Of a stretch of DNA of 64,000 nt, positions 1 to 27,842 are shown one piece after another. A program made the translations under genes and the position numbers. This stretch comes from an uncultured Anaerolineales bacterium (GTDB lineage: Bacteria; Chloroflexota; Anaerolineae; B4-G1). The notes under the pieces were generated by a model, which was not told the origin of the DNA, did not search any database, and was given only the letters and a program-made list of their open reading frames with translations. Numbering within the stretch: the first letter of the stretch is position 1; each line of letters opens with the position of its first letter. Location of the stretch: contig CAYMHT010000001.1 of assembly GCA_964390305.1 (NCBI GenBank), forward strand, positions 41 through 64,040. Reading direction: 5' to 3'.

Positions 1-1004
1 GTCTGAGTCGCCTCTCCTCTGCTCGGTCCGCAGGCCGTCCGGGTTGGAGCGTGGGTGGCGCAGTGAGTCTGGTGATGGGCGCTGTGGCTGTCTATTCGCT
101 CGCCGGCGTACTGGCCCCGGCATTCGCTCCCCCGCGCCCCTTGGGCAACACTGAGATCGAGAGTATACCGAATCAGATTGACGTCAAACTCGGGGCCACG
201 GCACAGCTGCTCGGTTATGCAGTCACGCCGACGGAGGTCAAGCCTGGCGACACCGTGGAGGTCGCGCTCTACTGGAAGCCCCTGGCGCGCACCCAGCACG
301 ACCTCGCCGTCTTTGTTCATCTGATGAGTGACGTAGGCGCCATGATCGCCCAGCGCGACACCTATCCTGGCCTGGGCCGGTACCCGACCACGGCGTGGGA
401 CCCCAGGGTCGTGTTCGCCGATATCTACCGAGTGGAGATTCCGAGCACTACCTACGCGCCAGACAGTGGCTACGTGCAGGTGGGCCTTTACCTGCCTGAT
501 GGCCCTCGCCTCGCTACCGACGAGGGACAAGACACGGTACGGCTCGCAAACGTCACGGTGGATCCGCACCCCGGCGCCGTCCCCAATCCCCTGGACATCA
601 ACTTCGGGGACAAAGTCGCATTGAAGGGATATACGCTTTATCCCCGGGTCGCAGGGCCAGGTGATACCATCCAACTCACCCTCTACTGGGAGGCACTGGC
701 GCCGATGGGGCTCGACTATCACGTATTTGCGCACGTCCTCGGCGACGAGAATCAGATCTGGGCCAACAGCGACAGTCTGCTCACGGACGAAGTAGTCTGC
801 AGCAGTCGGTGGAGGCCCGGCACGCTGGTCAAGGAGGTCCGGGAATTGACACTCCTTGAGGCAACGCCGCCGGATTTCTACGATGTCGAGGTGGGACTCT
901 ACATACCAGGTCAAGACCGTTTGGAGATTCTGGCGGAGGACGGTCGTCACCTTGGAAATCGGACCCTCCTAACTACGGTCCGGGTCGTGAACGACCGTGG
1001 GTGA
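1..1004 (+). CDS. 3' part of a GT-C family membrane glycosyltransferase (paralog P1); the 5' end lies beyond the window start. The visible part is a last TM helix plus two copies of the C-terminal repeat module
   Basis: Frame 3 is open from position 3 with no stop. The product shows a hydrophobic helix followed by two ~120-aa repeats with the LYW...FVHL...GLY-xPG motifs, the same module that ends the downstream paralogs. Confidence 0.55.
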   Translation, partial: LSRLSSARSAGRPGWSVGGAVSLVMGAVAVYSLAGVLAPAFAPPRPLGNTEIESIPNQIDVKLGATAQLLGYAVTPTEVKPGDTVEVALYWKPLARTQHDLAVFVHLMSDVGAMIAQRDTYPGLGRYPTTAWDPRVVFADIYRVEIPSTTYAPDSGYVQVGLYLPDGPRLATDEGQDTVRLANVTVDPHPGAVPNPLDINFGDKVALKGYTLYPRVAGPGDTIQLTLYWEALAPMGLDYHVFAHVLGDENQIWANSDSLLTDEVVCSSRWRPGTLVKEVRELTLLEATPPDFYDVEVGLYIPGQDRLEILAEDGRHLGNRTLLTTVRVVNDRG

Positions 1005-3546
1005 ACCTCGATTGCGCCGCAGGTATTGGGGCAGCGCGCTCCTCCTCTTACTGCTATACGTCGGCGTGGCAGTGGGAACGACATATCCGCTCGTAGGTCA
1101 CCTCACAACGCACCTACCCGGACAAACAACGGATACCTTGGTCCACTACTGGAACGGTTGGTGGGTGCGTCAGGCTTTGAGGAACGGTCAATCGCCCTTT
1201 CGCACCTCATATCTGTTCTACCCCCAGGGACTGAGTTTAGTATACCACAACTTCGCATGGCCCAGCATCCTGGGTTGGCTCGCATTGGAGCCCATAGTAG
1301 GAGGCTTTGCCGGCTACAACTTGGTCTTCCTTCTCAGCCTGGCTCTCTGCGGCTGGACAGCCTCTTTACTAGCATACGACCTGACTGGCGACAGACGGGC
1401 TGCGTTCCTCTCCGGTCTGATCTATCAGTGCTGGCCTTTTCGCATGGCCCAGCTGGATCATCCTAATCTGATCAGCACCTACTCCATTCCGTTGTTCCTG
1501 CTGTTCTTGAACCGTACGGTACGCCGCCACCGGTGGCGGAGCGGTGTGTTCGCAGGCGGTTTCCTCGCTTTGGTTGGCTATACCCGATGGCAACTCCTGA
1601 TTCCTGCTTCCATCATTGGGGGAATCTATCTGGCCTTCACCTTGCCTCGCGCTTGGGCTACGCGTCATCAGTGGCTGCCCCCGCTACTGCTCGCGGGGAG
1701 CGTCGCTGCGCTGGCATTGACCCCGCCGGCGATGCTATTGATGAACGAGCAACAGACCAATCCGGCAAGCTTGGTGAAGCAATCAGATGAGGTCGCAATG
1801 CAGACCGACCTGATGGCCTATCTGACCCCCAGCGCTGCCCACCCTATATTTGGCCCCTTCACCGCGACAGCTTATGATCGATACTACAGCAATCGTAGCA
1901 CAGGGCGCCGCTTCCCCGCCTACGTGGGTGTGGCGACACTGGCCTTAGCTTCTCTCGGCATCTGGCGGGCTTCTCGAAAGAGCATCCCCTGGGTGGTCGG
2001 AGCAGTTGTGCTGATCTCGTTGGCCTTGGGGATGGACCTGCGGATCAACGGCAACGTATATCCAGCTCTTCCGATGCCCTATCGCCTAGCAAGCAAGAGC
2101 TTCCTGGTGCGTCTATTGCGCTTTCCCGACCGCTTCAGTCTGTTTGTGGCGCTGCCGATGTCCATGCTGGCCGCGCATGGCACATCTCACGTTCTGCAGG
2201 CCTTTCGCCATGACAGCAAGAGGCTCGCAGCCAGCACGATGTGCCTGCTATGTGGAGCTGTTGTATTCGAATACCTGGCAGTACCCGCGCCCCACAGGGA
2301 TCCCCAGGCGTCAGACTTCTACCGAGAGATAGCTCACGAATCCCAGGAGTTCGCCATACTGAATCTGCCAATCAACTCCCAGAAGTCGAAAGAGTACATG
2401 TTTGCGCAAGTGACCCACCAACACCCGATCCTCCAGGGAAAGTCAGCTCGTTTACCAGAAGGCACGTATACCTATCTCGACACCCGTCCCTTGCTGCGAA
2501 GCCTAAAGCAGTCCGGTGAGATCGATCCAGCGCTTACCGACGTCAGTCGTCAGCTAACCTCCCTTGCGGACGACGACGTGGCCTACATCGTCCTGCACAA
2601 GCAGGAAGTTGAGGCCGATCGCGTGGCCCGCTGGCGTCGTTATCTCTTGACCACCCCTCGCTTCGAAGATCACCTGATTGCTGCTTTCTCTACGTCTCCT
2701 GTAGCAGGGCGGGATTTCCCTCTGGCACAGGAGCTTTTGCCCGGTATCGGGCCCGTGCACATCGTTACCTCGACTGGTTGCCTCGACCCTGGAGGGGTGC
2801 TAGAGGTAGATATTGGGTGGGGCACAGCACGATCTCTGACACAGGACTTCAGCCTGGAGATATCCCTCGCATCGAACGAAGGAACGACTGCAGAGAGTCG
2901 GGTCTATGCTCTGTCTTCGGACTGGCCCACGTCCAACTGGCCGGCGAATGCCCTGGTGTGGGGTTATTATCCTTTCCACGTGAGCACATCGCTACCCCGT
3001 GGCACCTACGCCGTCGAACTGGCCCTGGTCGACGCAGTGACCGCCGAGAAGGTGGGGCACTCGATGCTCGCTGGAGAGGTGAGAGTCCCCCGCACCAGGT
3101 GCGTCTTTCCTGTCCCCCCGGGTGCCACAAGTGTGAACTCGGTATTTGGCGACGCTCTGCGGCTCTTGGGTTACCGGTTGCTCCGCCAGGGGGACGAATT
3201 GGAGATCACTCTCTACTGGCGTTCGGAACAGAGAATGGAGACCGATTACAAGATCTTCGTCCATGTCTTTGAGCCAACCACCAAAGCTCCCGTAGCGCAG
3301 GACGACTCCATGCCCAAGCGGTGGGCCCATCCAACCACATTGTGGGCACCTGGAGAGCGGGTGGCAGACGTCATCCCTGTCTCGCTCAAAGGCGTGCCGC
3401 AAGGAGAATACGGCGTAGCAGTCGGAGTCTATGATCCGCAGACGATGGAACGTCTCCCTGTCGTCGGTGCCGAGAATCGGTTTTATCCCGATGATCGCCT
3501 CATCCTACAACGAGAGACCGTCGTGGTGGAGAATTCCAAGCCATGA
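997..3546 (+). CDS. GT-C family membrane glycosyltransferase (849 aa, paralog P2) with a multi-TM N-terminus and two C-terminal repeat modules
   Basis: Polytopic hydrophobic N-terminus of about 560 aa. The C-terminus has a degenerate and then a canonical repeat (ITLYWRSEQ...YKIFVHVF...GVYDPQTMERLPV). The GTG start overlaps the P1 stop by 8 nt. Confidence 0.7.
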   Translation: MGEPRLRRRYWGSALLLLLLYVGVAVGTTYPLVGHLTTHLPGQTTDTLVHYWNGWWVRQALRNGQSPFRTSYLFYPQGLSLVYHNFAWPSILGWLALEPIVGGFAGYNLVFLLSLALCGWTASLLAYDLTGDRRAAFLSGLIYQCWPFRMAQLDHPNLISTYSIPLFLLFLNRTVRRHRWRSGVFAGGFLALVGYTRWQLLIPASIIGGIYLAFTLPRAWATRHQWLPPLLLAGSVAALALTPPAMLLMNEQQTNPASLVKQSDEVAMQTDLMAYLTPSAAHPIFGPFTATAYDRYYSNRSTGRRFPAYVGVATLALASLGIWRASRKSIPWVVGAVVLISLALGMDLRINGNVYPALPMPYRLASKSFLVRLLRFPDRFSLFVALPMSMLAAHGTSHVLQAFRHDSKRLAASTMCLLCGAVVFEYLAVPAPHRDPQASDFYREIAHESQEFAILNLPINSQKSKEYMFAQVTHQHPILQGKSARLPEGTYTYLDTRPLLRSLKQSGEIDPALTDVSRQLTSLADDDVAYIVLHKQEVEADRVARWRRYLLTTPRFEDHLIAAFSTSPVAGRDFPLAQELLPGIGPVHIVTSTGCLDPGGVLEVDIGWGTARSLTQDFSLEISLASNEGTTAESRVYALSSDWPTSNWPANALVWGYYPFHVSTSLPRGTYAVELALVDAVTAEKVGHSMLAGEVRVPRTRCVFPVPPGATSVNSVFGDALRLLGYRLLRQGDELEITLYWRSEQRMETDYKIFVHVFEPTTKAPVAQDDSMPKRWAHPTTLWAPGERVADVIPVSLKGVPQGEYGVAVGVYDPQTMERLPVVGAENRFYPDDRLILQRETVVVENSKP

Positions 3547-5558
3547 GCAGACAGTGGCAATGGGCCATCCTCACGGGGATACTTCTGCTGGCTGCCGCGA
3601 TGCGCCTCGTGGCGCTAGGCCAGGTACCTCCTGGGTTAGCTCATGATGAAGTCGCCAACTGGCTCATCGCCCAGGATATCCTGAGCGGAAAGCACACGAT
3701 CTACTTCACCGCCGCCTACGGCCACGAACCGCTCTACCAGTACGTGCAGGCGGCCACCGTCGGGCTTTTCGGGGACCACTGGCTGGGGCTGCGCTGGCCC
3801 TCTTTCGCTTTCGGCCTGCTGGGCATTGTAGCGATCTATGCCCTGATGCGACGTCTGTTTGGCGCACCCGTCGCTCTGCTGACTATCACCTGGCTGACCG
3901 TGAGCTTTTGGCCTCTGTTCTACGCTCGGGTCGGCCTACGAGCTATTACGCTGCCTCTCACTGCCGCGCTCTCCGCCTACTTCCTCTGCCATGCCCCCAA
4001 CCAGCCAGCCAGTCCAACAACACACCAAGCCAGTGGTGCCTCAACACGTCAACTTGCCAATGCACTGCTTGCGGGGCTCTTCCTCGGCTTGAGCCTGTAC
4101 ACCTACATGGCGGCTCGTATTCTTCCCTTCATCTTCGTTACGTTCCTCGTGTATTCAATGCTTGTTTCCTCATCTCGTCTTGATGTCCGCTGGTCTCACC
4201 TGCTTGTGCTGTTTCTTGTCGCTCTCCTCGTGTCCATCCCTCTCGTAATCTGGCTGGCGACCCACCCTGGCGCCGAATATCGCATCTCGGAGATCCGAGA
4301 ACCGCTCGACCGTCTACTTGCGGGCGACCCGACGTTGGTCTGGCAGAATCTGATCGCCAACCTCAAGTCCTTTACGATCGCTGGTGATCCTTGGCCCCAT
4401 CAGAATCTGCCCGGGCGTCCGGTTTTCGCCGACCCGATCGGTGCCGTGTTGTTCTACGCCGGCGTCGGCATCGCGCTGTGGCGCTGGCACGATCCACGCT
4501 ACGGCTTTCTGCTCATCTGGCTGATCGGCGCGCTCGGCCCCAGCGTCGCCACCTCTGTCGCCCCTAGCTCTATCCGCAATATCCTCGGGCTGGTCGTCGT
4601 CTTTGCCTTCCCCGCGATCGCGCTCGCCGAAGCAGGCCGCTGGTTCAAAGGCGAGGTGCAAGGTGTAGCGAACAGGATACAGCGCTGGCCCTTCTTTCTT
4701 GTTGCCTCCTGCTTCTTACTTCTCACTCCCTGTCTCCTTCTCACTGGGCGCGACTACTTCGTCCGCTGGCCCCGGAATGAAGACGTCCGCTATTTCTACC
4801 AAACTGACCTGACCGCCGTGGCCCATCGGCTGGACGAACGGTCACCAGGGACGCCCGCTGTCGTGGCAGGACTTTCAGTGCACACGATGGATCGCCCAAC
4901 GCTGCAGCTCACCGCTTCCGAGCGCGTCGATGACGTCCGCCTCTGCGATACCCGCGAGACACTCGTCCTCCCCGCGTCAGCCAGGAATGAAGGACGGCTG
5001 TTTGTGCCTCGCATTGTCCCCTTCGATCCAGATCTCGAGCAGCGGCTCTTGAAGTGGGGAGCGGACCTTGCAACGTATCAGAATGGGGCCTTCATCACCT
5101 ATCGCTTGCCCGATCGTACCTCGCTGGAGCGCAATCTGGAGCTTCTAGCGGATGAGGCTGCTTTGCCCGACGGCTCGGTGGTGGAGCTCCCGGCCTCCTT
5201 CGGCGGCCACCTTGTTTTCCTCGGCTATGAGTGGCTCCAGAGTAATGGCGGCACTCTCAAGCTGCTGACATATTGGCGCGTTGAGGATCCGCCATCCACT
5301 CGGCTCAAAATCTTCGTACATCTGGTGGACGAGACCGGTCACCAAGTTGGTCAACACGACGGCCTGGGCAGCCCCCCGCAGGGATGGGCCCCTGGGGACT
5401 TGGTCGTACAGAAGCACTTTATAGCGTCCTCCGAGCCGGTTGCCCCTGGGCTTTTCAGCCCACAAGTCGGCCTGTATAATCCCTCCTCCGGGTCACGGCT
5501 CTCCGTCGCCGGTTTTGAGCGATTGTCTCTATCACCCGATGAGGCGAAGGCACCCTGA
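3543..5558 (+). CDS. GT39/ArnT-like (PMT family) GT-C glycosyltransferase (671 aa, paralog P3) with one C-terminal repeat module
   Basis: DE motif after TM1 (LAHDEVANW). ArnT/PMT-like loop (TAAYGHEPLYQYVQAATVGLFGDHWLGLRWPSFAFGLLGIVAIYALMRRLFG). C-terminal LLTYWRVED...KIFVHLVDETG...VGLYNPSSG module. ATGA start-stop overlap with P2. Confidence 0.8.
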   Translation: MSRQWQWAILTGILLLAAAMRLVALGQVPPGLAHDEVANWLIAQDILSGKHTIYFTAAYGHEPLYQYVQAATVGLFGDHWLGLRWPSFAFGLLGIVAIYALMRRLFGAPVALLTITWLTVSFWPLFYARVGLRAITLPLTAALSAYFLCHAPNQPASPTTHQASGASTRQLANALLAGLFLGLSLYTYMAARILPFIFVTFLVYSMLVSSSRLDVRWSHLLVLFLVALLVSIPLVIWLATHPGAEYRISEIREPLDRLLAGDPTLVWQNLIANLKSFTIAGDPWPHQNLPGRPVFADPIGAVLFYAGVGIALWRWHDPRYGFLLIWLIGALGPSVATSVAPSSIRNILGLVVVFAFPAIALAEAGRWFKGEVQGVANRIQRWPFFLVASCFLLLTPCLLLTGRDYFVRWPRNEDVRYFYQTDLTAVAHRLDERSPGTPAVVAGLSVHTMDRPTLQLTASERVDDVRLCDTRETLVLPASARNEGRLFVPRIVPFDPDLEQRLLKWGADLATYQNGAFITYRLPDRTSLERNLELLADEAALPDGSVVELPASFGGHLVFLGYEWLQSNGGTLKLLTYWRVEDPPSTRLKIFVHLVDETGHQVGQHDGLGSPPQGWAPGDLVVQKHFIASSEPVAPGLFSPQVGLYNPSSGSRLSVAGFERLSLSPDEAKAP

Positions 5559-5611
5559 GCACGATGGTTCGCATTCGGCCCGATTGATCGAAGTTCTAGA
5601 AGGTGCTTAGG

Positions 5612-7687
5612 ATGGCACAAGACAAACAACAGCGTCACTGGCTGCCCCCGTGGGCCGTCTCTGTCTTCATCTTTCTGTTAGCCTTCTTGCCACGTGCTGT
5701 CTACCCGGTCTCCCGGCCAATGCAGTGGTACACCCGCGCTGTTCGATTTAGCGATGCGCTGCTGGCGCAGGACTGGGCAGAAGCGTATCAGCGCTATCAC
5801 CCTGGCGTGTCTACGATGTGGCTCTCCAGCATCGGCGTGAGGCTCTATGCCTGGCAGAAAGGGCTGTCAACTGATCAGTTGTTGGGCACCGCGCCGACCA
5901 AGCCCGGCGTCCTAAACGACGCGGTCACAGCAGGCGTAATCCCATTGGCTGTCGTCATTGCCCTGTGCATTGGCCTGTCATACGTGCTGCTCAGCCGCAT
6001 CACTGAGCCCAAGGTCGCATTTGCAGGTAGTTGTCTGCTCGCATTGGACCCTTTCTACATCCCCCACAGCAAAGTGCTTCACGTAGATGCCCTGTTGGCG
6101 ACGTTCATGCTCACGAGTGCCCTGTTCTTGCTCAACTTCCTTCGCCATTCCAGGTCGCTCGATCTGATCTTGAGCGGCGCGTTCGCCGGGCTGGCATTTC
6201 TCAGCAAGAGTCCTTCCTGCTTCCTCATCCCCTACGCAGCCCTGGTAGTAGGGACACACAATGTTCTGCCTCATATCAGATCGGGACAAAAGCGATGGAC
6301 GCACCCATTCTGGGAGACAACCCGCGTCATGCTGCTCTGGGGCATGGTTGCCTGTGTGGTCTTTGTCGCGCTCTGGCCAGCAATGTGGGTCGAACCGGTG
6401 AGTACACTGCGCAAGATAGCAGCGAGAGTCCTGTTTCACATTGGGACCGCGCACTACAACCCTGTCTTCTTCGTCGGCGGGGTCACCCACGAAGACCCTG
6501 GCCCACTTTTCTATCTAGCGACTATCGCGTGGAAGACGACCCTGGTCACGCTGCCGATGCTGTGCGCTGCGATCCTCTTCGAGGCTCGTCAACTGCGGCG
6601 AGGTAAGGGAAACGGGATGGTATGGTTGTTCGCAGCATACGCTGCCTTCTTCACAGCCCAAATGTGCTTGAGTGCGCGAAAGGAGCTAGTTTATCTGTTG
6701 CCCGCTTTCCCGGCACTGGACATGCTGGCGGCGCTGGGCGTAGCGCGGACAGCGGATTCGGTGACCCGAGTCCGCCGTTGGCAGAGACTGGATTGGTTGC
6801 CGTCGGCGATAGTAGGCGGAGTGCTCGTGTTGCAGGCGGTCTTGGTGCTGCCGCGTCATCCCTACTACGGTACACTTCACAACCGTCTGCTGGGTGGAAC
6901 GCGGGTGGCGCAGTACATCCTTCCGCTCCAAGATCAAGGAGAGGGACTAGATCTGGCGGGGCAATACCTGAACACCCTACCTCGAGCACAACGTGCCAGG
7001 GCAGGCCTCTATAGACGCAGCGCTTCCATCTTTCGGCGCAACTTCGTGGGTGCAACCAGCAACATAAGCGACCCCCGTGCCAACTACCGGATCTACTACG
7101 TTAACCAGGTAATGCGTCGTCTCGGGAGCGAGGCGTGGGAGGAGATGTGGCATCTCGACCGGCAGGAGGAGCCTCTGTGGACGGTGACCTTTGGGGGTGT
7201 CACCTACGTCTGGGTCTATGGCGCGCCACCGGCAAAGCCAGCCGCTGGCGGGCCCGAGTACGAAGTGAACTGCCAATTTGGTGAGCATATCCAGCTGGAC
7301 CGCGTGCGCATCAGCACCGAGGTGCTCGCTCCGGGCGACAAACTGACCGTCGTGCCAGTCTGGATGTCGAACGGCGACATCGAGAGAAGCTACAAGGTCT
7401 TCTGCCACATCCTGTCCCAGACCGGCGAGTTGGCCGCACAGCGAGACGATTTTCCCCTCGCAGGCGTCCGCCAGACGCCGAGTTGGCGGCCCGGCGAACT
7501 CATCGAGGACAGCTACGAGATAAAGCTAGAGGACGATATGCCCCCGGGCGAGTATCAGGTCTCACTAGGGATGTATGATCCAGAGAGTATGCACCGCCTA
7601 CCCGTCTATGACGCGGCTGGCAGGCAGTTGGCTGACGAGCGAGTTGTTCTGACATCCGTGCGCGTTGAACAACGGACACAGGACTGA
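5612..7687 (+). CDS. GT-C family polytopic membrane glycosyltransferase (paralog P4) with one C-terminal repeat module
   Basis: Long multi-TM protein. C-terminus VVPVWMSNG...YKVFCHILSQTG...GMYDPESMHRLPV. ATG at 5612 is preferred over the GTG at 5603 because of the upstream GAAGGTG. Confidence 0.65.
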   Translation: MAQDKQQRHWLPPWAVSVFIFLLAFLPRAVYPVSRPMQWYTRAVRFSDALLAQDWAEAYQRYHPGVSTMWLSSIGVRLYAWQKGLSTDQLLGTAPTKPGVLNDAVTAGVIPLAVVIALCIGLSYVLLSRITEPKVAFAGSCLLALDPFYIPHSKVLHVDALLATFMLTSALFLLNFLRHSRSLDLILSGAFAGLAFLSKSPSCFLIPYAALVVGTHNVLPHIRSGQKRWTHPFWETTRVMLLWGMVACVVFVALWPAMWVEPVSTLRKIAARVLFHIGTAHYNPVFFVGGVTHEDPGPLFYLATIAWKTTLVTLPMLCAAILFEARQLRRGKGNGMVWLFAAYAAFFTAQMCLSARKELVYLLPAFPALDMLAALGVARTADSVTRVRRWQRLDWLPSAIVGGVLVLQAVLVLPRHPYYGTLHNRLLGGTRVAQYILPLQDQGEGLDLAGQYLNTLPRAQRARAGLYRRSASIFRRNFVGATSNISDPRANYRIYYVNQVMRRLGSEAWEEMWHLDRQEEPLWTVTFGGVTYVWVYGAPPAKPAAGGPEYEVNCQFGEHIQLDRVRISTEVLAPGDKLTVVPVWMSNGDIERSYKVFCHILSQTGELAAQRDDFPLAGVRQTPSWRPGELIEDSYEIKLEDDMPPGEYQVSLGMYDPESMHRLPVYDAAGRQLADERVVLTSVRVEQRTQD

Positions 7688-7711
7688 CAGCAAGGCAGCC
7701 CTACGGTTTCC

Positions 7712-9352
7712 ATGAAGCATTGTATGGCTCCGCGGTTCCTCATCGTCCTCCTGTTGCTGATCTCCTTCGGCCTGTGCCTCACCAGTGCGATACAAAAATC
7801 GCCAACAATGGATGAGCAAAACCACATTGCCCGGGGAGCTGCCTATCTGGGTACCGGCGATCCACGCCTGAACATCGAGCATCCGCCGGTGGTCAACGTC
7901 CTCAGCGCGCTGCCCTCCCACCTCCTGCTCGATCTCCGTCTGCCACTCGACGAGTGGTGGGAGGTTGCGGAATGGTACCACTTCGCCGACAACTTCTTGT
8001 GGCATGCCAACCAGGATCCCGACGCCATCGTCTTCCTCTCCCGCCTGCCCATCATCGGACTGGGGCTGTTGCTGACCTCCCTTGTCTTCCGTTGGGCGCG
8101 CAGGCGCTTCGGTGCGTGGGGTGGACTGCTTGCGGCTGCCTTCTGTGGGCTGGATCCCAATATCCTGGCCCATGAGCGGCTCTCGACGACAGACCTGGGT
8201 GCCACCTTCTTCATCCTCCTGGCTGCTTATGCGTTCTGGCGGCTCTCGCGGCAACTCTCTCCACGGCGCGTCCTGGCTGCCGGTTTGGCACTGGGGCTCG
8301 CTTTCGCCGCCAAGCTCTCGGCACTGGTCTTCGGTCCCATCCTGGGCCTCACGTTCCTCCTGGATGGGATGCGCCACAGCTCACACCGCGCGCGTCACCT
8401 GCTGCGCCGTCTGGCCCTCGGCGCGGCGGTGGCGACGCTGGCGCTACTGGTGATTTGGGGCAGCTACCTTTTCCAGGTAGGACCGTTCGAAGGCATCAGC
8501 GTCCCAGCGCCAGCACCGCCTTACCTCGAGGGTGTGCAAGCCATACTAAGTCTCGCCGCCGGGGGTCGACCGGCTTACCTGCTGGGCCGGATCAGCACCG
8601 AAGGCTGGTGGTACTACTTCCCGGTCGCTTTCGCGGTCAAGACGCCCCTGCCCACTCTGCTCGGCCTGCTCGTCGCAAGCCTAGTGATGATTCTGCAACC
8701 GAGCCGCGACGACCTGTTCGTCTGGTTTCCGCCGCTGGCTTTCTTCCTAATCCTCATGACCGCTCGTCTCAACCTGGGGTATCGGCACTTATTGCCCATC
8801 CTGCCTTTCCTCGCCATCCATGTTGGTCGCCTTGCTCAACCCTCTGCCTTTCGCTTTCTGGCGCATCAGTCCTCACAGGTTGACTTATGCCGCTTTGTAA
8901 GTATCGTCCTCGCCGCCTGGCTGACAGCGAGCACCGTCTCGATCTATCCTCACTTCCTCGCCTACTTCAGTCCCCTCGGTGGCGGCCCAGAGAACGGCTG
9001 GCGCATCCTCGTCGATTCCAACATCGATTGGGGCCAGGATCTGAAAGAGCTGCGGAAGTGGATGGTGCACGGAAACGTTGAGCGGGTCAAGCTGAGCTGG
9101 TTTGGGAGCGCTCCGCCGGAGGCTTACGGCATAGAGCACCAGTTGCTGGTCGGCGTCCCTCATGGGTTCACGATGTGGCAAGATCCGCCCTTCAATCCTG
9201 ATCAACCAGAGCCGGGGGTTTACGCAATAAGCGTGACCAATCTGGTAGGAGCAGCGCTTCCCGACCCAGACCTGTACGCGTGGTTCCGGAGGCATCCGCC
9301 CGACGATCGAGTCGGCTACACCATCTTCATCTATCGAGTCGAAGCGCCATGA
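7712..9352 (+). CDS. GT39/PMT_2-like GT-C membrane glycosyltransferase (546 aa, paralog P5); the only member of the family without the C-terminal repeat module
   Basis: DE motif in the first loop (PTMDEQNHIARG). About 11 predicted TM segments. Ends ...GYTIFIYRVEAP without the repeat motif. Confidence 0.7.
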   Translation: MKHCMAPRFLIVLLLLISFGLCLTSAIQKSPTMDEQNHIARGAAYLGTGDPRLNIEHPPVVNVLSALPSHLLLDLRLPLDEWWEVAEWYHFADNFLWHANQDPDAIVFLSRLPIIGLGLLLTSLVFRWARRRFGAWGGLLAAAFCGLDPNILAHERLSTTDLGATFFILLAAYAFWRLSRQLSPRRVLAAGLALGLAFAAKLSALVFGPILGLTFLLDGMRHSSHRARHLLRRLALGAAVATLALLVIWGSYLFQVGPFEGISVPAPAPPYLEGVQAILSLAAGGRPAYLLGRISTEGWWYYFPVAFAVKTPLPTLLGLLVASLVMILQPSRDDLFVWFPPLAFFLILMTARLNLGYRHLLPILPFLAIHVGRLAQPSAFRFLAHQSSQVDLCRFVSIVLAAWLTASTVSIYPHFLAYFSPLGGGPENGWRILVDSNIDWGQDLKELRKWMVHGNVERVKLSWFGSAPPEAYGIEHQLLVGVPHGFTMWQDPPFNPDQPEPGVYAISVTNLVGAALPDPDLYAWFRRHPPDDRVGYTIFIYRVEAP

Positions 9353-11418
9353 CTCCACCCACCCGACCGGAGACAGCCCCTGGTCCCCACCTCGAGCTTT
9401 GGCTGATGGTCGCGACCCTTGTCGTCGCGACTTTCTTCCGCTTCTATGCGCCCTGCACCATGCCGCCGGGGCCGTCGCACGACGAGCTCCGGATGATGGA
9501 TCTCGGCGAGATGATCGTCGAGGGAGAACGACCTATCCACTGGACGATAAGCTACAGCGCCGAGCCGCTCTTTATGTATCTGCTGGCGCTCGTTATGCCA
9601 GTATGGGGCTTCACCCCATTCGGGGCGCGCCTCGTGACGCGCTTCGCGGGTCTGCTGCTTATCCCCGTAGCGCACCGTCTGACGCGTCGTCTCTTTGGGC
9701 GGCGTATCGCGCTCTTCACCAGCGGTGTGCTCGCGGTGACCTGGTGGCCGTTATTCTTCAGCCGGGTGGCCCTCCGCGGTATCACGCTGCCACTGACCTT
9801 CACCGGCGCCATCATCTGCCTCTGGCGAGGTCTGGCTTTGGACGAGGACAGGACCCTCAGAACTCGGACTACTGCACACTGGGGATGGCTGGTTGGAGGC
9901 GGAGCGTTGACGGGGCTCACCTGGTATACGTTCACCGCTGCTCGAGGCCTAGCCATTCTGCTGCCGATGCTGTTGGTCTACCTGGGATTGCTGGGAGCCA
10001 TCCCCCTCGGCCAGCTTGGGCGCATCGCTCTCGTGACGCTAGTGATGGCATCCCTGGTCGCTGCCCCCTTCATCTACGAGATGCAGGTCCACCCAGGCGC
10101 ACCCGAGACACGCCTAGATCAGTTGGGGGGCGTCGTTGACCAACTGCTGGCCGGAAACCTCGTTCCCTTTGCGAAGCAGGCTCTGAATACAGCGGGCCTG
10201 TTCTTGGTGACAGGTGATCCAAACTGGCGCTATAACATCGCAGAGCGCCCGGTGTTTGGCCCACTGCTCGGAGCCATAGCCATCCTGGGTCTTGCGCTGA
10301 GCGTCGCCCACTGGCGGCAACCGCGCCACGCCCTCCTGATTCTGTGGCTGCTCCTGGGGGTTGCTCCTTCCGTCCTTACCCCCGAAGCGCCAAGCTTCGT
10401 GCGCGGAATAGGCACCCTGCCCGTGGTTGCGGTCTTCCCTGCAATTGGCGCTGTGGCCATCTGCGACTGGGTCGCGTTGCGCACGGGTCGAAGCCTTGCC
10501 AGGCTCGGTGCCGTCCTGGTCGTGGTCCTCATACCGCTCAACGGCCTGGTCACGTTCCGCGATTCGTTCTTCGTGTGGACAGCTCGACCAGAGGTGCGCG
10601 AGATCTATCAAGCTTCTCTTACCGAGGCGTTCCGTGACCTCAATCACAGCAACCTGGAGGGGCCGCTCTGGATCTCTGAACCCTTCCCTGATGACCGTCA
10701 CCTGCTGCTCGCCAAGCGGGTCCTCCATCGGAAGGCTATCGAACTGCGCTGGTTCGACGCCGATAGAGCGCTGATCCTGCCCCCTGCCAGTGGTGTCCGA
10801 CGCTATCTGCTCGCAGATTTCGCGGAACCCGACCAGAGGCTCTTTGCACGATGGATGGGCGACGCGACTGAGCTGCTCGAGCGGCACACGGATTCGCCCG
10901 CGTCAAAGACTTCAACGTACAGGCTTTACCAGGCTGTAGGAGGCCCTTGGGTAGAGGAGGAGCTCTCACAGATTGAAGCGCAGTCAACGGCGTCGCTCGA
11001 CCTTGAGACAGAGCGCCCTGTGACGCTGCCGTCTCGTTTCGAAGACGTAGCGACGATGCTGGGGTATGAACTGGTGGACGATAGGTTGGCGCCTGAGGAC
11101 CAGGTTCATGTCAGCCTCTACTGGCGTGTCCACAAGCCCGTCTATGAGCCAATCGCAAGCTTCGTCCACCTCCTCGACCAAGAGAATAACGTCGTCGGTC
11201 AATACGATGGCTTTGACGTCCCCCCTTGGCATTGGGAACCTGGCGCCGTCATCGCCCAGGTCTATCGCTTCACAATTGACGAGCACACTCGAGAGGGACC
11301 TCACTGGCTGGAAGCCGGTCTCTACCATTCGCAGACGATGGAGCGGCTGATGGTTGTCGACGAAGCAGGCTTCGTGCTTGGCGATCGGTTGGTGCTTCAA
11401 CGTGTCACGGTGCGATAG
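9349..11418 (+). CDS. GT39/ArnT-like GT-C glycosyltransferase (paralog P6) with one C-terminal repeat module
   Basis: PSHDELRMM DE motif. ArnT/PMT-like loop (ISYSAEPLFMYLLALVMPVWGFTPFGARLVTRFAGLL...RRLFG). C-terminal VSLYWRVHKP...SFVHLLDQEN...AGLYHSQTMERL. The ATG at 9349 overlaps the P5 stop (ATGA); the ORF-track start at 9280 would overlap P5 by 70 nt. Confidence 0.75.
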   Translation: MTPPTRPETAPGPHLELWLMVATLVVATFFRFYAPCTMPPGPSHDELRMMDLGEMIVEGERPIHWTISYSAEPLFMYLLALVMPVWGFTPFGARLVTRFAGLLLIPVAHRLTRRLFGRRIALFTSGVLAVTWWPLFFSRVALRGITLPLTFTGAIICLWRGLALDEDRTLRTRTTAHWGWLVGGGALTGLTWYTFTAARGLAILLPMLLVYLGLLGAIPLGQLGRIALVTLVMASLVAAPFIYEMQVHPGAPETRLDQLGGVVDQLLAGNLVPFAKQALNTAGLFLVTGDPNWRYNIAERPVFGPLLGAIAILGLALSVAHWRQPRHALLILWLLLGVAPSVLTPEAPSFVRGIGTLPVVAVFPAIGAVAICDWVALRTGRSLARLGAVLVVVLIPLNGLVTFRDSFFVWTARPEVREIYQASLTEAFRDLNHSNLEGPLWISEPFPDDRHLLLAKRVLHRKAIELRWFDADRALILPPASGVRRYLLADFAEPDQRLFARWMGDATELLERHTDSPASKTSTYRLYQAVGGPWVEEELSQIEAQSTASLDLETERPVTLPSRFEDVATMLGYELVDDRLAPEDQVHVSLYWRVHKPVYEPIASFVHLLDQENNVVGQYDGFDVPPWHWEPGAVIAQVYRFTIDEHTREGPHWLEAGLYHSQTMERLMVVDEAGFVLGDRLVLQRVTVR

Positions 11419-11595: not shown

Positions 11596-11624
11596 TTGAC
11601 AAGAGGTCCATCCCATAGTAGAAT
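11596..11624 (+). promoter_or_regulatory. sigma70-type promoter: TTGACA, 17-nt spacer, TAGAAT
   Basis: TTGACA at 11596-11601 and TAGAAT at 11619-11624 with an exact 17-nt spacer, about 120 nt upstream of the ATG at 11743. Confidence 0.5.
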
Positions 11625-11742
11625 CGCGTCACTTGACCCCGTCACAGCTTGCCTCCTGCAAGCCAAGACGCTTCTGATAGAGCCACACCAGCCTCGTAGC
11701 ACCATGGCCGGCGAATGGTGCTCACGGGAAAGGAATACAGAG

Positions 11743-13203
11743 ATGAAACCGAGTACGACATCAATCAGGCGTGCCACGTGGATGTTGATGAGCGGTGCCT
11801 GTGGGCTCGCGCTCGTCGTAGGCTTGCTTCTGTTCGTTCGACTCCCGGTCCGAGCGAAGCCAGCGGCAGACCCGATGGGCGCAGGAGTGACTGTAGAGAA
11901 ATACGCAAACACGGACTTCGCAGACGCTGGAGACACCCTTACCTACACCATCAGCATCGGGAAGCTCGGAGCCGACGCAACGTCCGCCTGGCTCACGGAC
12001 GAGTTGCCCACCCAACTCACCTACGTCGCCGACAGCCTCACGGCTGTCGACAGCTTCGGCGACCACATTGGAACCTTCGGGGCAAGCAATGGCGTGATCA
12101 CCTGGCACGCACCCAGCCTGGCCGGCAACGTGTGGATCACCTTTAGCGCCCAGATTTCGTCAGAGACAGAGGCGGATATCGTCAATGTGGCTGAAGTCAC
12201 CGGGACCGGCGAGTTGATCACAGACTCCTGGAAGACACGCCTCGGTGGGGGCTTGATCTACATGCCCCTTATCGCGAGGCGGTGGCCACCTATACCTTAT
12301 GCCCCGATCCTGCATGAAATATCGAACCCAGACCGGCAGAGAGACTACACTGTCAACTGGGACTATGATTACGCCGAGCCCCCGGTGTTCTCGTACACGT
12401 TGCAGGAGGCGAGGAACGAGGGCTTCACCCAAGATGTGACTGACTTCCAGATCACCGCCCCCTCGTCATCGAAGAGCTTCGCCAATAAGGATGGCGGGAC
12501 GTATTACTACCGGGTGCGGGGCCACAATACATATGGACCAGGCCCGTGGAGTAACGTGGTACGGACGACAGTCTTCTACTACTTCGATGACTTCAGCGAC
12601 TACCAGAGTGGGTGGCCGCGAGAGTGGACCAGAACGCGCGGAGCTCTGTATCGGGTGCGTCCTTATGAACACCCCGCATGCCCAGGGTCCGACTGCAAGT
12701 ACGACGGAGGAGACGGCTATCTCATCGCACGCCGAAATGACGGTGAACCCTTTGCGCGGTTCGGCCCGAACGTAAAGGTGCCAGGAGCGGATTACGAGAT
12801 TACGCTAGACGCGCGCTGGTTCTCGTCCAACTTCTGGAACACCTACCAGATCTTCTTTGGATCCGACAAGTCGTTCGAGAAGTACTACGCTGTTCAGGTT
12901 CGCTACAGCTACGAAGGCTACTGTGCCTATTCCATTGTCAAGGACCGCGACGACAATTACCTGGAGGGGTGGTCGCACGCCACGGACATCAAGTGCCAGG
13001 CAGGGGATGACGCATCCCGGGATCACTGGAAGATCCGTCGCAAAGAGGGCAAAATCACTGTGTGGGTTAACAACGTGGCGCTAGGCACGTGGACCGACTG
13101 GTCTTATGGTGCTGACCGCTATTTCGGCGTGGGGGCCACGACCTACGAGTTCACCCCCTCTAAACCAGAGTTCGACAACTTCAGAGTCAGGCTGATAGAC
13201 TAG
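11743..13203 (+). CDS. Secreted or membrane-anchored surface protein with a signal/anchor, a DUF11-like repeat domain, an FN3-like domain and a C-terminal concanavalin/LamG-like (DUF1080-type) lectin or hydrolase-like domain
   Basis: N-terminus MKPSTTSIRRATWMLMSGACGLALVVGLLLF is a signal/anchor. DUF11-like segment (TVEKYANTDFADAGDTLTYTISI...VADSL). FN3-like segment (GTYYYRVRGHNTYGPGPWSNVVRTTV). C-terminus ...KITVWVNNVALGT...FDNFRVRLID resembles the DUF1080/LamG ending. GGAAAGGAA RBS before the ATG at 11743. The longer ORF start at 11596 lies inside the promoter. Confidence 0.65.
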   Translation: MKPSTTSIRRATWMLMSGACGLALVVGLLLFVRLPVRAKPAADPMGAGVTVEKYANTDFADAGDTLTYTISIGKLGADATSAWLTDELPTQLTYVADSLTAVDSFGDHIGTFGASNGVITWHAPSLAGNVWITFSAQISSETEADIVNVAEVTGTGELITDSWKTRLGGGLIYMPLIARRWPPIPYAPILHEISNPDRQRDYTVNWDYDYAEPPVFSYTLQEARNEGFTQDVTDFQITAPSSSKSFANKDGGTYYYRVRGHNTYGPGPWSNVVRTTVFYYFDDFSDYQSGWPREWTRTRGALYRVRPYEHPACPGSDCKYDGGDGYLIARRNDGEPFARFGPNVKVPGADYEITLDARWFSSNFWNTYQIFFGSDKSFEKYYAVQVRYSYEGYCAYSIVKDRDDNYLEGWSHATDIKCQAGDDASRDHWKIRRKEGKITVWVNNVALGTWTDWSYGADRYFGVGATTYEFTPSKPEFDNFRVRLID

Positions 13204-13317: not shown

Positions 13318-14280
13318 ATGAACAGAAGGACGCTGAACGGACTGCGCATACTGATCAGCGCGGGTGCGCTGATCTTCTTGTTCTGGAAGATCGTAACCCC
13401 AGATGAGACGTTCAGGGTCCTGAGCCGAGCCGACTTGCGATACGTCTTGGCGGGATTCCTCCTCTTCGCTGCCAGCCTGGTCATTCGCGCCTACCGCTGG
13501 ATCCTCTTGCTCCGCAGTCTCGACCCCAGCGTTCCGTTCTCTCGACTGGTCCGCCTCTACTTCGCCGGGCAGTTCTTCAGCAGCTTCCTTCCCACTCAGT
13601 TTGGCGGTGACGTGATGCGAGCGCTGGAGTTGACCGAGGACACCGACTCACCAGCCGCCGTCGGTACCGTCCTACTTGATCGCATGATCGGCCTGCTCAT
13701 TCTCTTTGTCATAGGACTGGCAGCACTCCCGTTCGTCGCCACGCGCATCGCGCCATGGTTGGCGTGGCTCCTGGTCATTGTGTCCGGCACGGGACTGGCA
13801 GCGGGGGTACTGGTGTTAGAGGGCCGCCTGCTGCGGAGGGTTTCTGCCTGGCTGCCGGATGCAGTATCCCTCTCGGGCGAAGGTCCTCTCGCCAAGACGT
13901 ATGCCGCAGTGACTGCCTGTGGGTGGCAGGCAGTAGCTGGTGCCTCCGCAGTCTCATTGGGGTTCAATATCCTCAACATCCTCATCAACTGGTTATCTGC
14001 GCAGGCAGTGGGTATAGGTACGGGTTTGGGATACTTCTTCGTCGTGACCCCGATCCTGTCCATCTCGGGTCTCATTCCTTCCATTGGCGGTTGGGGTGTG
14101 CGCGAAGCCGTGAGCACAGCCCTCTTCGCCCCAGTCGGTGTCGACGAGAGCGCGGCTGTGGCCCTTGGGATAACGCTCAATGGTATCACTCTGGCAACGG
14201 GTCTCGCCGGAGGGATCGTCTACGGTGTCGAGAGACTGACCGGCCTGAAGAAAGGGCACGAGACGCCGGAGTCTCAGTAA
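13318..14280 (+). CDS. Flippase-like domain membrane protein (UPF0104 / lysyl-PG-synthase TM-region family)
   Basis: About 8 TM helices. N-terminus RILISAGALIFLFWKI...RAYRWILLLRSL is typical of TIGR00374-type flippase-like proteins that accompany glycosyltransferases. Confidence 0.65.
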   Translation: MNRRTLNGLRILISAGALIFLFWKIVTPDETFRVLSRADLRYVLAGFLLFAASLVIRAYRWILLLRSLDPSVPFSRLVRLYFAGQFFSSFLPTQFGGDVMRALELTEDTDSPAAVGTVLLDRMIGLLILFVIGLAALPFVATRIAPWLAWLLVIVSGTGLAAGVLVLEGRLLRRVSAWLPDAVSLSGEGPLAKTYAAVTACGWQAVAGASAVSLGFNILNILINWLSAQAVGIGTGLGYFFVVTPILSISGLIPSIGGWGVREAVSTALFAPVGVDESAAVALGITLNGITLATGLAGGIVYGVERLTGLKKGHETPESQ

Positions 14281-14281
14281 G

Positions 14282-15082
14282 ATGATCACCAGCTCAAGCA
14301 ACGATAGAGTCAAGTACGTACGAAAGCTGCAGAGCCAGAGCAGCACCCGCCACCGTGATCGGCGCTTCGTGCTGGAGGGCGTGCGACTGGTTGAGGAGGT
14401 GGTTCGCGCCAGCCTCGTCCCAACCCTGGTGTTCTACACGGAGACCCTCGCCAACGAGCCTCGGGGCAAGGCCCTGCTGGTCACACTGCAGGCCCTGGAC
14501 GCGCCCTGCTACGCCGTGAGCGAATCGGTGATGGACGACTGCTCGGACACCGTGACGCCCCAGGGCATCCTCGTCGTCTTGCCTATCCCCCGGCTTTCGG
14601 CTCCAGACCCCCTCACACTTGCGGTGATCGTCGACCGTCTGCGAGACCCGGGCAACCTGGGAACCCTCCTTCGCACTGCCCTCGCCGCTGGCGTGGAGCA
14701 GGTCCTGTTGGCACCTGGGACGGTCGATTTCACGAACCCGAAGGTGGTACGATCGGCCATGGGGGCCCACCTTCGTCTTCCGATGGGAGATGCCGACTGG
14801 GACATCATTGCCCAAGCAGTCGCCGAGTGCGACGTGTGGCTGGCGGCGGGTGGCGCACGAAGGCGGTACACAGAGGTCGATTGGACGCGTCCCGCGGCAC
14901 TGATCATTGGGAGCGAGGCTCACGGGGCCGGGGAGAAGGCCCGGGAGCTCGCCGACGGTCGTGTCTCTATCCCCATCAGGCCGGCGGTCGAGTCACTCAA
15001 CGCAGCGATGGCCGCGGCGATCATCCTCTTCGAGGCAGTGCGTCAAAGAGGTTCGGCGGTGCCTGGGCGAAGCTCAGCTTGA
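14282..15082 (+). CDS. TrmH/SpoU-family RNA 2'-O-methyltransferase (RlmB-like)
   Basis: SpoU methylase motifs (DPGNLGTLLRTA, LIIGSEAHG, SLNAAMAAAIILFE). The start lies 2 nt after the upstream stop. Confidence 0.85.
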   Translation: MITSSSNDRVKYVRKLQSQSSTRHRDRRFVLEGVRLVEEVVRASLVPTLVFYTETLANEPRGKALLVTLQALDAPCYAVSESVMDDCSDTVTPQGILVVLPIPRLSAPDPLTLAVIVDRLRDPGNLGTLLRTALAAGVEQVLLAPGTVDFTNPKVVRSAMGAHLRLPMGDADWDIIAQAVAECDVWLAAGGARRRYTEVDWTRPAALIIGSEAHGAGEKARELADGRVSIPIRPAVESLNAAMAAAIILFEAVRQRGSAVPGRSSA

Positions 15083-15205
15083 CGACAGGCACGTGGGAGC
15101 GACCGGACGAATCGACGACGGAACCGTCGATCAGCATCCGCCCCTCCCCCCGGTATGATCCTCCTTCACGCCTTTCACCCTAAGACAAACACGCCCCCCG
15201 ACCAA

Positions 15206-15233
15206 TTGACAGGCGACATGAGACATCTATAAT
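15206..15233 (+). promoter_or_regulatory. sigma70-type promoter: TTGACA, 16-nt spacer, TATAAT
   Basis: Consensus hexamers at 15206-11 and 15228-33, about 17 nt upstream of the GT4 gene ATG at 15250 (very short leader). Confidence 0.55.
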
Positions 15234-15249
15234 TCCGTCGGAATCTGGT

Positions 15250-16359
15250 ATGCGAATTGGCATTGACGCTCGGATTGCTTACTACTCCCACGGTGGAATC
15301 CGCAGCTACGTCGTCCATCTAGTGGACGCCCTGGCAGGTCTGGACGGCGAGACGGATTATCGCATCCTGTATAGCCGCAACGATCGTGAGGTATCGCCAT
15401 CAGGCTCCAACTTCCGCCCCGTCCCCTGCTGGACACCTTCTCACCATCGTTTCGAGCGCTGGGCGCTGGGCATAGAGATATCCCGGTTGGGTCTGGACCT
15501 GTTGCACACCCCAGACTTCATACCTCCAGCCTTCGGTTACGATCGCTCGGTCATCACGATCCACGACCTCAATTTCCTCTACTACCCGCGGTTTCTCACG
15601 GCTGAGAGCCGTCGATACTACAACGATCAGATTGAGTGGGCTGTCCGGCGCACGGACCACATTCTGGTCGACTCACGGGCCACGAAGACCGACCTCACCT
15701 CGGTCCTCGGAGTCCCATGCGAAAAGGTCACGGTTGTTCACCTGGCCGCAGATCCCTCTTTCCACCCGGTTTCGGACGAGGACGCGCGCGAAGTTGCCGC
15801 GCGGTACGCTCTCGAGCCTGGTTTCCTCCTGTTCGTGGGGACCCTGGAGCCGAGAAAGAACCTCCCCGGCCTGTTACGTGCCTATCGAATTCTCCTGGAC
15901 GAGGACGTGACAGCCCAGCCGCTGGTCCTCGTGGGTAGCAAGGGCTGGCTGTATGAAGAGATCTTCGATCGCGTCGAGACGTTGGATTTGAGCAAGCAGG
16001 TCCGCTTTCTGCATGGGGTACCCGATGCTGATCTGCCAGGGCTCTACAACGCGGCCAGCGTCCTGGCGACCCCTTCATTTTACGAGGGGTTTGGTCTACC
16101 CCCCTTAGAAGCGATGTCCTGTGGCACGCCAGTCGTCGTCGCAGACCGGGCGTCTTTGCCCGAGGTGGTGGGGGACTCAGGGGTCTTCATCGACCCCGAA
16201 GATCCCGATGACATCGCACGGGCATTACAGCGTGTTCTGACGGAGGAGTCGCTCCGCGACAGGATGCGAGAGCTGGGACTGGAGAGGGCCTCTAGATTCA
16301 GCTGGAAGCGCGTGGCTCAGGAGACGCTGGATGTCTATCGTGAGGTACTCAGTCGATGA
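15250..16359 (+). CDS. Glycosyltransferase family 4 (GT-B, RfaG-like)
   Basis: GT4 C-terminal signature (EPRKNL...FYEGFGLPPLEAMSCGTPVVVADRASLPEVVGD). Confidence 0.85.
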   Translation: MRIGIDARIAYYSHGGIRSYVVHLVDALAGLDGETDYRILYSRNDREVSPSGSNFRPVPCWTPSHHRFERWALGIEISRLGLDLLHTPDFIPPAFGYDRSVITIHDLNFLYYPRFLTAESRRYYNDQIEWAVRRTDHILVDSRATKTDLTSVLGVPCEKVTVVHLAADPSFHPVSDEDAREVAARYALEPGFLLFVGTLEPRKNLPGLLRAYRILLDEDVTAQPLVLVGSKGWLYEEIFDRVETLDLSKQVRFLHGVPDADLPGLYNAASVLATPSFYEGFGLPPLEAMSCGTPVVVADRASLPEVVGDSGVFIDPEDPDDIARALQRVLTEESLRDRMRELGLERASRFSWKRVAQETLDVYREVLSR

Positions 16360-26432: not shown

Positions 26433-26561
26433 GCCGGGGATGGAGGATCACCAGGCGTTGGCCGGACAGCAAAGGTTCAGTTGATGAGACGTGCCAACTC
26501 GTCAATCGGCATAGTCGCAACGCGGAGCGACTCCTGAACGCTTCCTTGGGAGGATAGCGGC

Positions 26562-27842
26562 GTGGAGAAGTTTTTGATCGAAGGGGGACATCCCATCTCC
26601 GGGACGCTGGCCCCCAGTGGAAACAAGAACGCGGCTCTTCCGCTACTTGCGGCCTGCCTGTTGACAGATGAACCGATCACATTGCGGAATATGCCCGACA
26701 TCGGTGACATACGCACCATGGCCGAGATCCTCGCCGATATCGGCGTTGATGTCGAACAGCCCGGTCCCCACACGTGGCGAGTCCATGCTCAAGACATCCG
26801 TACGAACGAACTGAGCCCCGACCTCTTCGGCCGCATCCGGGGCTCAATCACGCTGGCCGGTCCGTTGCTCGCACGCACCGGCGGCGTTCACATGCCCTCG
26901 CCCGGCGGGGACGTCATCGGACGTCGCCGCGTCGATACACACTTCCTGGCCTTAGGTGCGTTGGGTGCGGAGCTCGGCAGCGGTCTTTCCTTCCACCTGG
27001 AAGGCCGGCAGCTTCACGGTACCGATATTCTCTTGGATGAGGCCAGCGTCACCGGCACCGAGAACGCCATCATGGCATCTGTGCTTGCAGAGGGCACAAC
27101 GGTGATCCGCAACGCGGCGTGCGAGCCCCACGTACAGGATCTGTGCCACATGCTTTGTCGGTTCGGCGCACAGATAGCGGGTATCGGCTCCAATACCCTT
27201 TCGATCCACGGCGTGGATCGTTTGGACGGGGGCGAGTTCACCGTTGGGCCAGATTATATGGAGGTGGGAAGCTACATCGCCCTGGCCGCCGTGACGGGAG
27301 GCGAGTTGTTGATCAAGGGGGCCGCTCCGGAACATCTGCGGATGATCGGCCTGGTCTTTGATCGTTTAGGGGTTCAGTTCGAGGCTCAAGGTGACGATGT
27401 CTTCGTGCCCGCAGAGCAGCCATTGACCGTCACACCGGACCTCGGTGGTGCGATTCCAACCATCAAGGACGCTCCCTGGCCGGCTTTTCCCGCTGACTTG
27501 ATGAGCATCGCCATCGTGTTAGCGTCTCAAGCTAAAGGAACCGTCCTGGTTCACGAGAAGATGTTTGAGAGCCGCCTCTACTTCGTGGATCAGTTGATCG
27601 CTATGGGAGCCCGTATCATCCTCTGCGACCCGCATCGATGCGTGGTGCAAGGGCCTTCTCCTCTGCACGGCGAGGAGGTCAGCAGTCCAGACATCCGTGC
27701 TGGCATGGCTCTGCTTATCGCAGCCCTCTGCGCCAGAGGCCAGAGCCTGATCCGAAACATCCGTCAGATTGACCGCGGATATGAGCGGATCGAGGAGAAA
27801 CTGTCCTCCCTGGGTGCTGTGGTCAAGCGCATCTGTGTCTGA
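26562..27842 (+). CDS. murA: UDP-N-acetylglucosamine 1-carboxyvinyltransferase
   Basis: Typical MurA sequence across its length ([23 protein letters not shown]...). Confidence 0.95.

Follow-up and report, generated by a model that had tools for sequence, protein, structure and literature searches.

Why should a series of bacterial membrane proteins, whose membrane domains are for the most part not recognizable as relatives of each other, end in the same kind of domain, and what could that domain do? The question is raised by a stretch of 64,000 nucleotides from an uncultured Anaerolineales bacterium of the Chloroflexota (contig CAYMHT010000001.1), which is referred to below as the window. It has a G+C content of approximately 60 %, and large open reading frames (ORFs) on its plus strand occur in runs at 1-11418 and 43037-48310. 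An initial annotation had interpreted seven of these ORFs as GT-C glycosyltransferase paralogs that share a C-terminal repeat module of a nature it could not assign. The ORFs in question, named P1 to P8, are listed here with their lengths in amino acids (aa) and their matches to the PMT_2 family (PF13231), the gathering score of which is 26.1 bits.

P1, 3-1004, plus strand, 5' end cut by the window edge; a 744-aa ortholog matches PMT_2 (40.2 bits) and PMT
P2, 997-3546, plus strand, GT-C-like protein of 849 aa; PMT_2 at 26.2 bits
P3, 3543-5558, plus strand, GT-C protein of 671 aa with an 'HDE' motif after the first transmembrane helix (TM1); PMT_2 at 46.5 bits (E = 5.9e-12)
P4, 5603-7687, plus strand, GT-C protein of 694 aa; PMT_2 at 47.9 bits
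P5, 7712-9352, plus strand, GT-C protein of 546 aa without the module; PMT_2 at 41.0 bits, and PMT
P6, 9280-11418, plus strand, GT-C protein related to P3 (BLASTP E = 1e-49); PMT_2 at 19.4 bits, below threshold
P7, 43037-45820, plus strand, GT-C protein of 927 aa; PMT_2 at 36.7 bits (E = 6.2e-9)
P8, 45938-48310, plus strand, GT-C protein of 790 aa; PMT_2 at 27.0 bits

The assignment to GT-C stands, both by the PMT_2 matches and by the fold of P4. A full-length AlphaFold model of the latter, made with 55 relatives, has a predicted local distance difference test score (pLDDT) of 90.4 and a predicted template modelling score of 0.88; in it, a membrane domain with the GT-C fold, whose helices end near residue 418, is followed by an α/β domain (about 432-540) and by a β-sandwich, the module (552-688). 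As P1 itself is truncated, it was counted as GT-C because its closest ortholog, a protein of 744 aa with 58 % identity, carries the PMT_2 and PMT matches. P7 also matches the mannosyltransferase model NF052499, albeit far below threshold (42.8 bits with a cut-off of 900; E = 2.4e-11). Sequence searches of the PDB with the P4 family profile and with P3 returned nothing usable. A 'DE' motif after TM1 can be found by eye in P3, P5, P6, P7, and P8; P2 has 'TTD' at this place and P4 is without an obvious equivalent.

The other half of the original claim, that of close paralogy, does not stand. Only P3 and P6 are clearly linked by BLASTP in their membrane domains (E 1e-49; 33 % identity over 428 residues), P7 and P8 are weakly so (E 0.005), and all other pairs have E > 0.8. 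By this comparison the host membrane domains are distinct GT-C subfamilies and not recent paralogs. Because most of them cannot detect each other by BLASTP, the C-terminal module is the shared element, and on the sequences it is the most conserved one that these enzymes have in common. Neighboring genes share a few bases in several cases (P1 and P2 at 997-1004, P2 and P3 at 3543-3546), a hint at a single operon. In the P1 subfamily (3-1004 of the window; 4597-6828 of the related locus L004), the first module begins only some 20 residues after the last membrane helix, and the α/β domain of about 140 residues seen in most other hosts is missing.

Twelve module domains in seven ORFs, and no other matching ORF, were found when the last 135 aa of P8 were used as the jackhmmer seed against the 696 six-frame ORFs of at least 50 aa in the window. 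All 12 were already recovered by single-sequence phmmer without iteration: 9 of the 11 copies other than the seed have domain E values of 6e-21 to 1e-6, the weakest ones being the first copies of P2 (E 0.0014) and P7 (E 0.11), and nothing further in the window matched at E ≤ 10. P5 had no module match with either program. The copies are as follows; ranges in brackets are those of the search itself where the final strand lies beyond them.

P1 copy 1, 177-581, plus strand, jackhmmer; most signature residues kept (F H Q D ... W ... D ... Y ... R)
P1 copy 2, last, 591-980 (hidden Markov model envelope 591-956, final strand added), plus strand, jackhmmer; signature partly degenerate
P2 copy 1, inner and degenerate, 2764-3117, plus strand, jackhmmer; signature residues gone
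P2 copy 2, last and canonical, 3133-3525 (jackhmmer 3133-3489), plus strand; full signature F H Q D P PT W E D G Y R
P3, single copy, 5187-5555 (jackhmmer 5187-5531), plus strand, jackhmmer and alignment
P4, single canonical copy, 7265-7684 (jackhmmer 7265-7657), plus strand; signature invariant in 55 relatives
P6, single copy, 11029-11415 (jackhmmer 11029-11382), plus strand, jackhmmer and alignment
P7 copy 1, inner and degenerate, 44615-44992, plus strand, jackhmmer
P7 copy 2, inner and degenerate, 44987-45370 (jackhmmer 44987-45349), plus strand, jackhmmer
P7 copy 3, last and mostly canonical, 45431-45817 (jackhmmer 45431-45781), plus strand, jackhmmer and alignment
P8 copy 1, inner and partly canonical, 47492-47902, plus strand, jackhmmer
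P8 copy 2, last, 47903-48307, plus strand, jackhmmer; the copy used for the AlphaFold model and the fold searches

The copy numbers of the initial annotation (P1 2, P2 2, P3 1, P4 1, P5 0, P6 1, P7 3, P8 2) were thus recovered by jackhmmer, its coordinates were right to within a few tens of bases, and its motif string was reproduced by the consensus of the 12 copies and by that of 454 copies from other genomes. Only the extent needed revision. A module of roughly the size given (110-130 aa) exists, but it runs to 115-137 aa, with about 125 being typical, as it ends some 20 residues beyond 'RLP' and includes a final β-strand '(D)RxxLxxVxV'. Pairwise identity among the 12 copies is 12-39 %, so the copies are not repeats at the level of DNA and are, judged by this divergence, ancient.

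The β-sandwich that had been expected from the alternation of hydrophobic residues was borne out by the model of P8 copy 2, made with 48 sequences, in which nine strands form an almost all-β structure at a pLDDT of 97.4. On this model the module is an autonomous immunoglobulin-like (Ig-like) β-sandwich domain of E-set type with a length of about 125 residues. It could, as before, not be given a family name, since searches of Pfam, NCBIfam, and PDB with profiles were without a match at threshold. Pfam-A matched no part of the module region in the eight complete proteins, and with isolated copies, 12 from the window and then a set of 60, it stayed below threshold; NCBIfam gave nothing in the module region, and the 12-copy and 48-sequence profiles gave nothing in the PDB. 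Below threshold, the 60 copies matched ML (9 copies), DUF4625, DUF4832, and MG2 (4 each), and Wzt_C, NPCBM_assoc, and the RbmA-like fibronectin type III (FnIII) family (2 each), all of which are β-sandwiches; the best E values were 7.8e-4 for DUF4625, 0.0029 for Wzt_C, and 0.0041 for ML. A broader profile of 60 copies found only RbmA in the PDB (E 4.7e-4, a sum of two individually insignificant stretches). In the fold search with Foldseek, RbmA came out on top (E 6e-6), followed by the carbohydrate-binding domain of Wzt, at a template modelling (TM) score of 0.63-0.65, and NPC2; the carbohydrate-binding modules of Emb and AftD were absent from the matches. The module was described in none of the papers found in a literature search.

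Outside the window the family is very large. A profile search of 1.84 billion representative sequences yielded 30,706 matches at E ≤ 1e-3, counted as clusters at 50 % identity, and 21,314 at E ≤ 1e-10. In every case inspected, namely the best 150 matches and 213 ORFs from related loci, the module follows the transmembrane region, in 1-4 tandem copies. The best 150 representatives have 2-4 tandem copies each, a list biased to multi-copy proteins. Database entries with only the module are short fragments called 'hypothetical protein', the precomputed Pfam field being empty for 64, and one such entry corresponds to the C-terminal half of a P8 ortholog that is split, at a syntenic locus. At this locus, L083, the P8 ortholog (3342-5627) was called as two genes of 500 aa (PMT_2) and 208 aa (module only), which could reflect a frameshift or a genuine split; the P7 ortholog in L083 has a faint Pfam match to the E-set family NPCBM_assoc. 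A genome scan produced 379 P4-family relatives, and the best 80 loci among these are all from Chloroflexota or unclassified bacterial metagenome-assembled genomes (MAGs), a taxonomic picture that is biased to P4 relatives by the use of the P4 family alignment as query. Anaerolineae, Caldilineae, Ardenticatenia, and Chloroflexia are represented, with Roseiflexus, Caldilinea aerophila, and an Oscillochloris isolate among them, and one module fragment came from a Fimbriimonadaceae MAG. No plasmid match was obtained with tblastn. In 82 Chloroflexota loci (945 kb), 213 module-bearing ORFs are present, with up to six per locus of about 14 kb; one, two, and three copies were counted in 93, 81, and 8 ORFs, respectively.

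In one single-copy subfamily of these relatives, the module is followed by a further hydrophobic helix and a short basic tail, so that it would be anchored in the membrane on either side. Its ORFs are:

L013, 8075-10390
L016, 2990-5260
L018, 7938-10349
L019, 6083-8563
L020, 4637-6805
L021, 5926-8052
L023, 4358-6538
L024, 6401-8581

A first indication of what the module may do comes from a comparison of copies by their place in the protein. When 454 copies from the 150 representatives were aligned and divided in this way, the last copies were seen to keep F46, H48, Q59, D61, P64, G67, P70, T71, W74, E78, D82, G102, Y104, and R111 (numbering of P8 copy 2) at frequencies of 0.92-1.00. In middle copies only the fold-defining residues are retained (W33, W74, the glycine, and the P-T pair), with H48, Q59, D61, Y104, and R111 falling to 0.2-0.36, while first copies are intermediate. 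The same trend is visible in the window, where the set is complete in P2 copy 2 and P4 and is gone from P2 copy 1 and from the first two copies of P7; in the P4 family none of the signature residues varies among 55 relatives. Mean identity is 29.9 % among last copies and 23 % between last and inner copies. As far as conservation can tell, such a conserved set of H, Q, D, W, E, D, Y, and R would be expected in a ligand site but not in a spacer.

A second indication is the side of the membrane on which the module is likely to be found. In the P4 family (55 relatives), the short loop before the last helix has on average 4.1 lysine and arginine residues and the first 15 residues after it have 0.2. 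In 113 full-length representatives these values are 2.66 and 1.56 (Wilcoxon p = 6e-8), with the larger number before the helix in 67 proteins and the reverse in 21. By the positive-inside rule, this charge bias at the last helix places the tail outside, and to our knowledge every solved GT-C structure with a large C-terminal soluble domain has that domain outside. From bias and precedent we infer that the module is extracytoplasmic, at the outer face of the cytoplasmic membrane. The initial annotation had proposed the same, and the local charge bias agrees with it, whole-protein topology prediction being ambiguous. The extra membrane helix of the subfamily listed above was considered as topology evidence as well and was dropped, both of its flanks being basic.

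The reading that is preferred here, with a confidence that puts it about midway between doubt and acceptance, is that the terminal module would be an extracytoplasmic unit for the binding of a glycan or an acceptor, with the inner copies as spacers. Putative glycan binding is favored because of the conserved set, the glycan binders among the nearest folds, and the sharing of the module by unrelated GT-C subfamilies. The setting among other genes of the cell envelope, listed further below, is in keeping with this reading. The module would be fused after the last membrane helix of GT-C enzymes that depend on polyprenyl-phosphate sugars, mostly behind a small α/β domain. The C-terminal-most copy would be the working unit, with F46, H48, Q59, D61, W74, E78, D82, Y104, and R111 as its candidate site, and this site may bind the glycan acceptor, the product, or a common envelope polymer. 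Several unrelated GT-C enzymes could in this manner be kept on one substrate, to which the membrane-embedded active site would add sugars. Inner copies that have lost the site would serve mainly as spacers or provide secondary contacts. A more far-reaching version is only tentatively put forward: the terminal copy may represent a new, very large family of carbohydrate-binding modules, an address tag that recruits unrelated GT-C subfamilies to a single, as yet undescribed envelope polymer of Chloroflexota.

Several observations weigh against the binding proposal. Fold matches that are as good as those to glycan binders were obtained with non-binding structural Ig-like domains of GH2 enzymes, arrestin/Vps26, Spo0M, and NPC2, and the fold alone does therefore not imply sugar binding. 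P1 is an exception to the pattern of conservation, as there the last copy is the more degenerate of the two, so the notion that the last copy is the working one describes a trend and not a rule. Whole-protein prediction in the manner of TopPred was inconsistent and mistook β-strands of the soluble tail for membrane helices, and in the P4 model the lysine and arginine residues summed over all loops are nearly balanced, under schemes of both 11 and 12 helices.

The GH2-type fold matches and the degeneration of the inner copies would also suit a purely structural role, in which the module is a stalk, a spacer, or an oligomerization domain and binds no substrate. That the last copy in 150 diverse proteins has nine near-invariant polar and aromatic residues, which a spacer does not need, and that single-copy P4 keeps the full set invariant in its 55 relatives, makes such a role unlikely, although among the alternatives it fares best.

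Slightly less probable still is that the module docks a protein instead of a glycan, either an acceptor or a partner, such as a surface protein, an S-layer-type protein, or a protein of envelope assembly. The hosts match PMT and PMT_2, families of protein O-mannosyltransferases, Ig-like domains often mediate protein contacts, and a gene for a surface-type protein with a DUF11 domain lies directly after the P1-P6 array; this protein is possibly a surface protein and a candidate acceptor for the enzymes. Yet the closest of the full-domain fold matches for which a ligand is known, namely RbmA and the carbohydrate-binding domain of Wzt, bind glycans, and the occurrence of the module in six or more GT-C subfamilies that are not similar to one another is a better fit to a shared polymer.

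The surroundings as a whole are those of cell-envelope genes, with Wzy_C, GT4, LytR-CpsA-Psr, MurJ, MurA, an ABC-2 permease, and the DUF11 protein:

11596-13203, DUF11 protein of 535 aa (PF01345, E 9.6e-8), hydrophobic segment at the N terminus; immediately follows the P1-P6 array
13318-17564 and 25041-29715, LPG_synthase_TM protein, two GT4 glycosyltransferases, LytR-CpsA-Psr, MurA, and MurJ
48315-49799, Wzy_C gene (O-antigen ligase or polymerase type) by Pfam, directly after P8
L083, 5699-7204, Wzy_C gene of the related locus

The order P7, P8, Wzy_C, M50 peptidase, prephenate dehydrogenase, and GT4 is kept in L083, which is a metagenome contig of 184 kb. The ABC-2 (Wzm-like) permease gene lies at 53637-54452, without an adjacent ATPase gene among the ORFs scanned. 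Elsewhere in the window, an ORF of 764 aa (22608-24902) has one sub-threshold match to NHL repeats and is otherwise unannotated, and the selenocysteine elongation factor SelB (58493-60433) is preceded by an ORF of 402 aa without a meaningful Pfam match (57270-60433 for the two together).

A binder of lipids or carriers resembling ML/NPC2, with the polyprenyl-phosphate carrier or a glycolipid acceptor as its ligand, is improbable. NPC2 and MD-1/MD-2 do appear in Foldseek at E values of about 3e-5 to 3e-4, and ML was the commonest weak Pfam match (9 of 60 copies, best E 0.0041). Each ML (PF02221) match is below the gathering score, however, and the TM score is about 0.5, compared with the 0.63-0.65 of the Wzt carbohydrate-binding domain. 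It is the copy most distant from the membrane along the chain, by up to three domains, that is conserved, and the conserved cysteines that are typical of ML domains are absent from the consensus of the module. A cytoplasmic regulatory domain is the least probable of all, in spite of a crude TopPred-style 'C-terminus in' for several proteins and the cytoplasmic location of the structurally similar Wzt domain, because those predictions took tail strands as membrane helices in P2, P4, P5, and P8, the charge bias at the last helix points the opposite way, and we know of no solved GT-C enzyme (ArnT, PglB/STT3, Emb, AftD) with a large cytoplasmic C-terminal domain.

Whatever the role of the module, its 30,706 clusters are a gap in annotation, being without a Pfam or NCBIfam model or a solved structure, and naming the family would annotate the last, so far unexplained third of proteins that number in the tens of thousands and carry the label 'glycosyltransferase family 39 / ArnT-like'. 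The envelope glycans of Chloroflexota are poorly known, and arrays of up to six such GT-C genes are found in these bacteria. As a soluble and easily expressed domain with a sharply conserved candidate site, the module is a practical probe for the acceptor polymer. It is also a natural example of tandem domains in which a putative functional site is kept by the terminal copy alone, as a trend with the P1 exception given above. If the terminal copy were indeed an address tag, the enzymes would form an extracytoplasmic assembly line like that of mycobacterial arabinogalactan and lipoarabinomannan synthesis, and the ligand of the module would point straight to the glycan in question.

Among known systems, the Ig-like domains of GH2 glycosidases and other E-set proteins (MG2, NPCBM_assoc, DUF4832, DUF4625) do not reach the gathering score in any case, and they are mostly structural parts of soluble glycosidases. 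RbmA, a polysaccharide-binding protein of the Vibrio cholerae biofilm matrix with FnIII domains (PF22021), has a TM score of only about 0.53, and its profile match adds up two insignificant stretches that lie in two different RbmA domains; it is a secreted matrix protein and not an appendage of an enzyme. The C-terminal carbohydrate-binding domain of Wzt (PF14524; PDB 6o14, 2r5o, 5hno, and 7k2t) has the same fold, at the TM score given above, with an identity of 12-15 %. The Wzt_C profile matched just 2 of the 60 copies, both below threshold with a best E of 0.0029, and no PDB profile match to Wzt chains was obtained. The carbohydrate-binding domain of Wzt is fused to an ATPase and is cytoplasmic, whereas the module described here is carried by GT-C enzymes and is presumably outside. 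For the Emb proteins (EmbA/B/C) and AftD of mycobacteria, no structural or sequence similarity of the module was found. Because all tests of membership by sequence profile failed, the module is, at the level of such profiles, a member of none of the Emb/AftD, Wzt, and RbmA families.

In architecture, the Emb and AftD enzymes are nevertheless similar. They too consist of a polytopic GT-C domain followed by one or more extracytoplasmic β-sandwich modules (a location that is presumed for the module of this study), several such GT-C enzymes are encoded side by side, and the proposed role is likewise that of holding the acceptor glycan. Accessory β-sandwich modules on GT-C enzymes are thus already known from Emb and AftD, and no new principle is involved. 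What is new with respect to the literature searched is the family itself, its size, its tandem layout, in which the terminal copy differs from the rest, and the part it plays as the element that divergent GT-C enzymes of Chloroflexota share.
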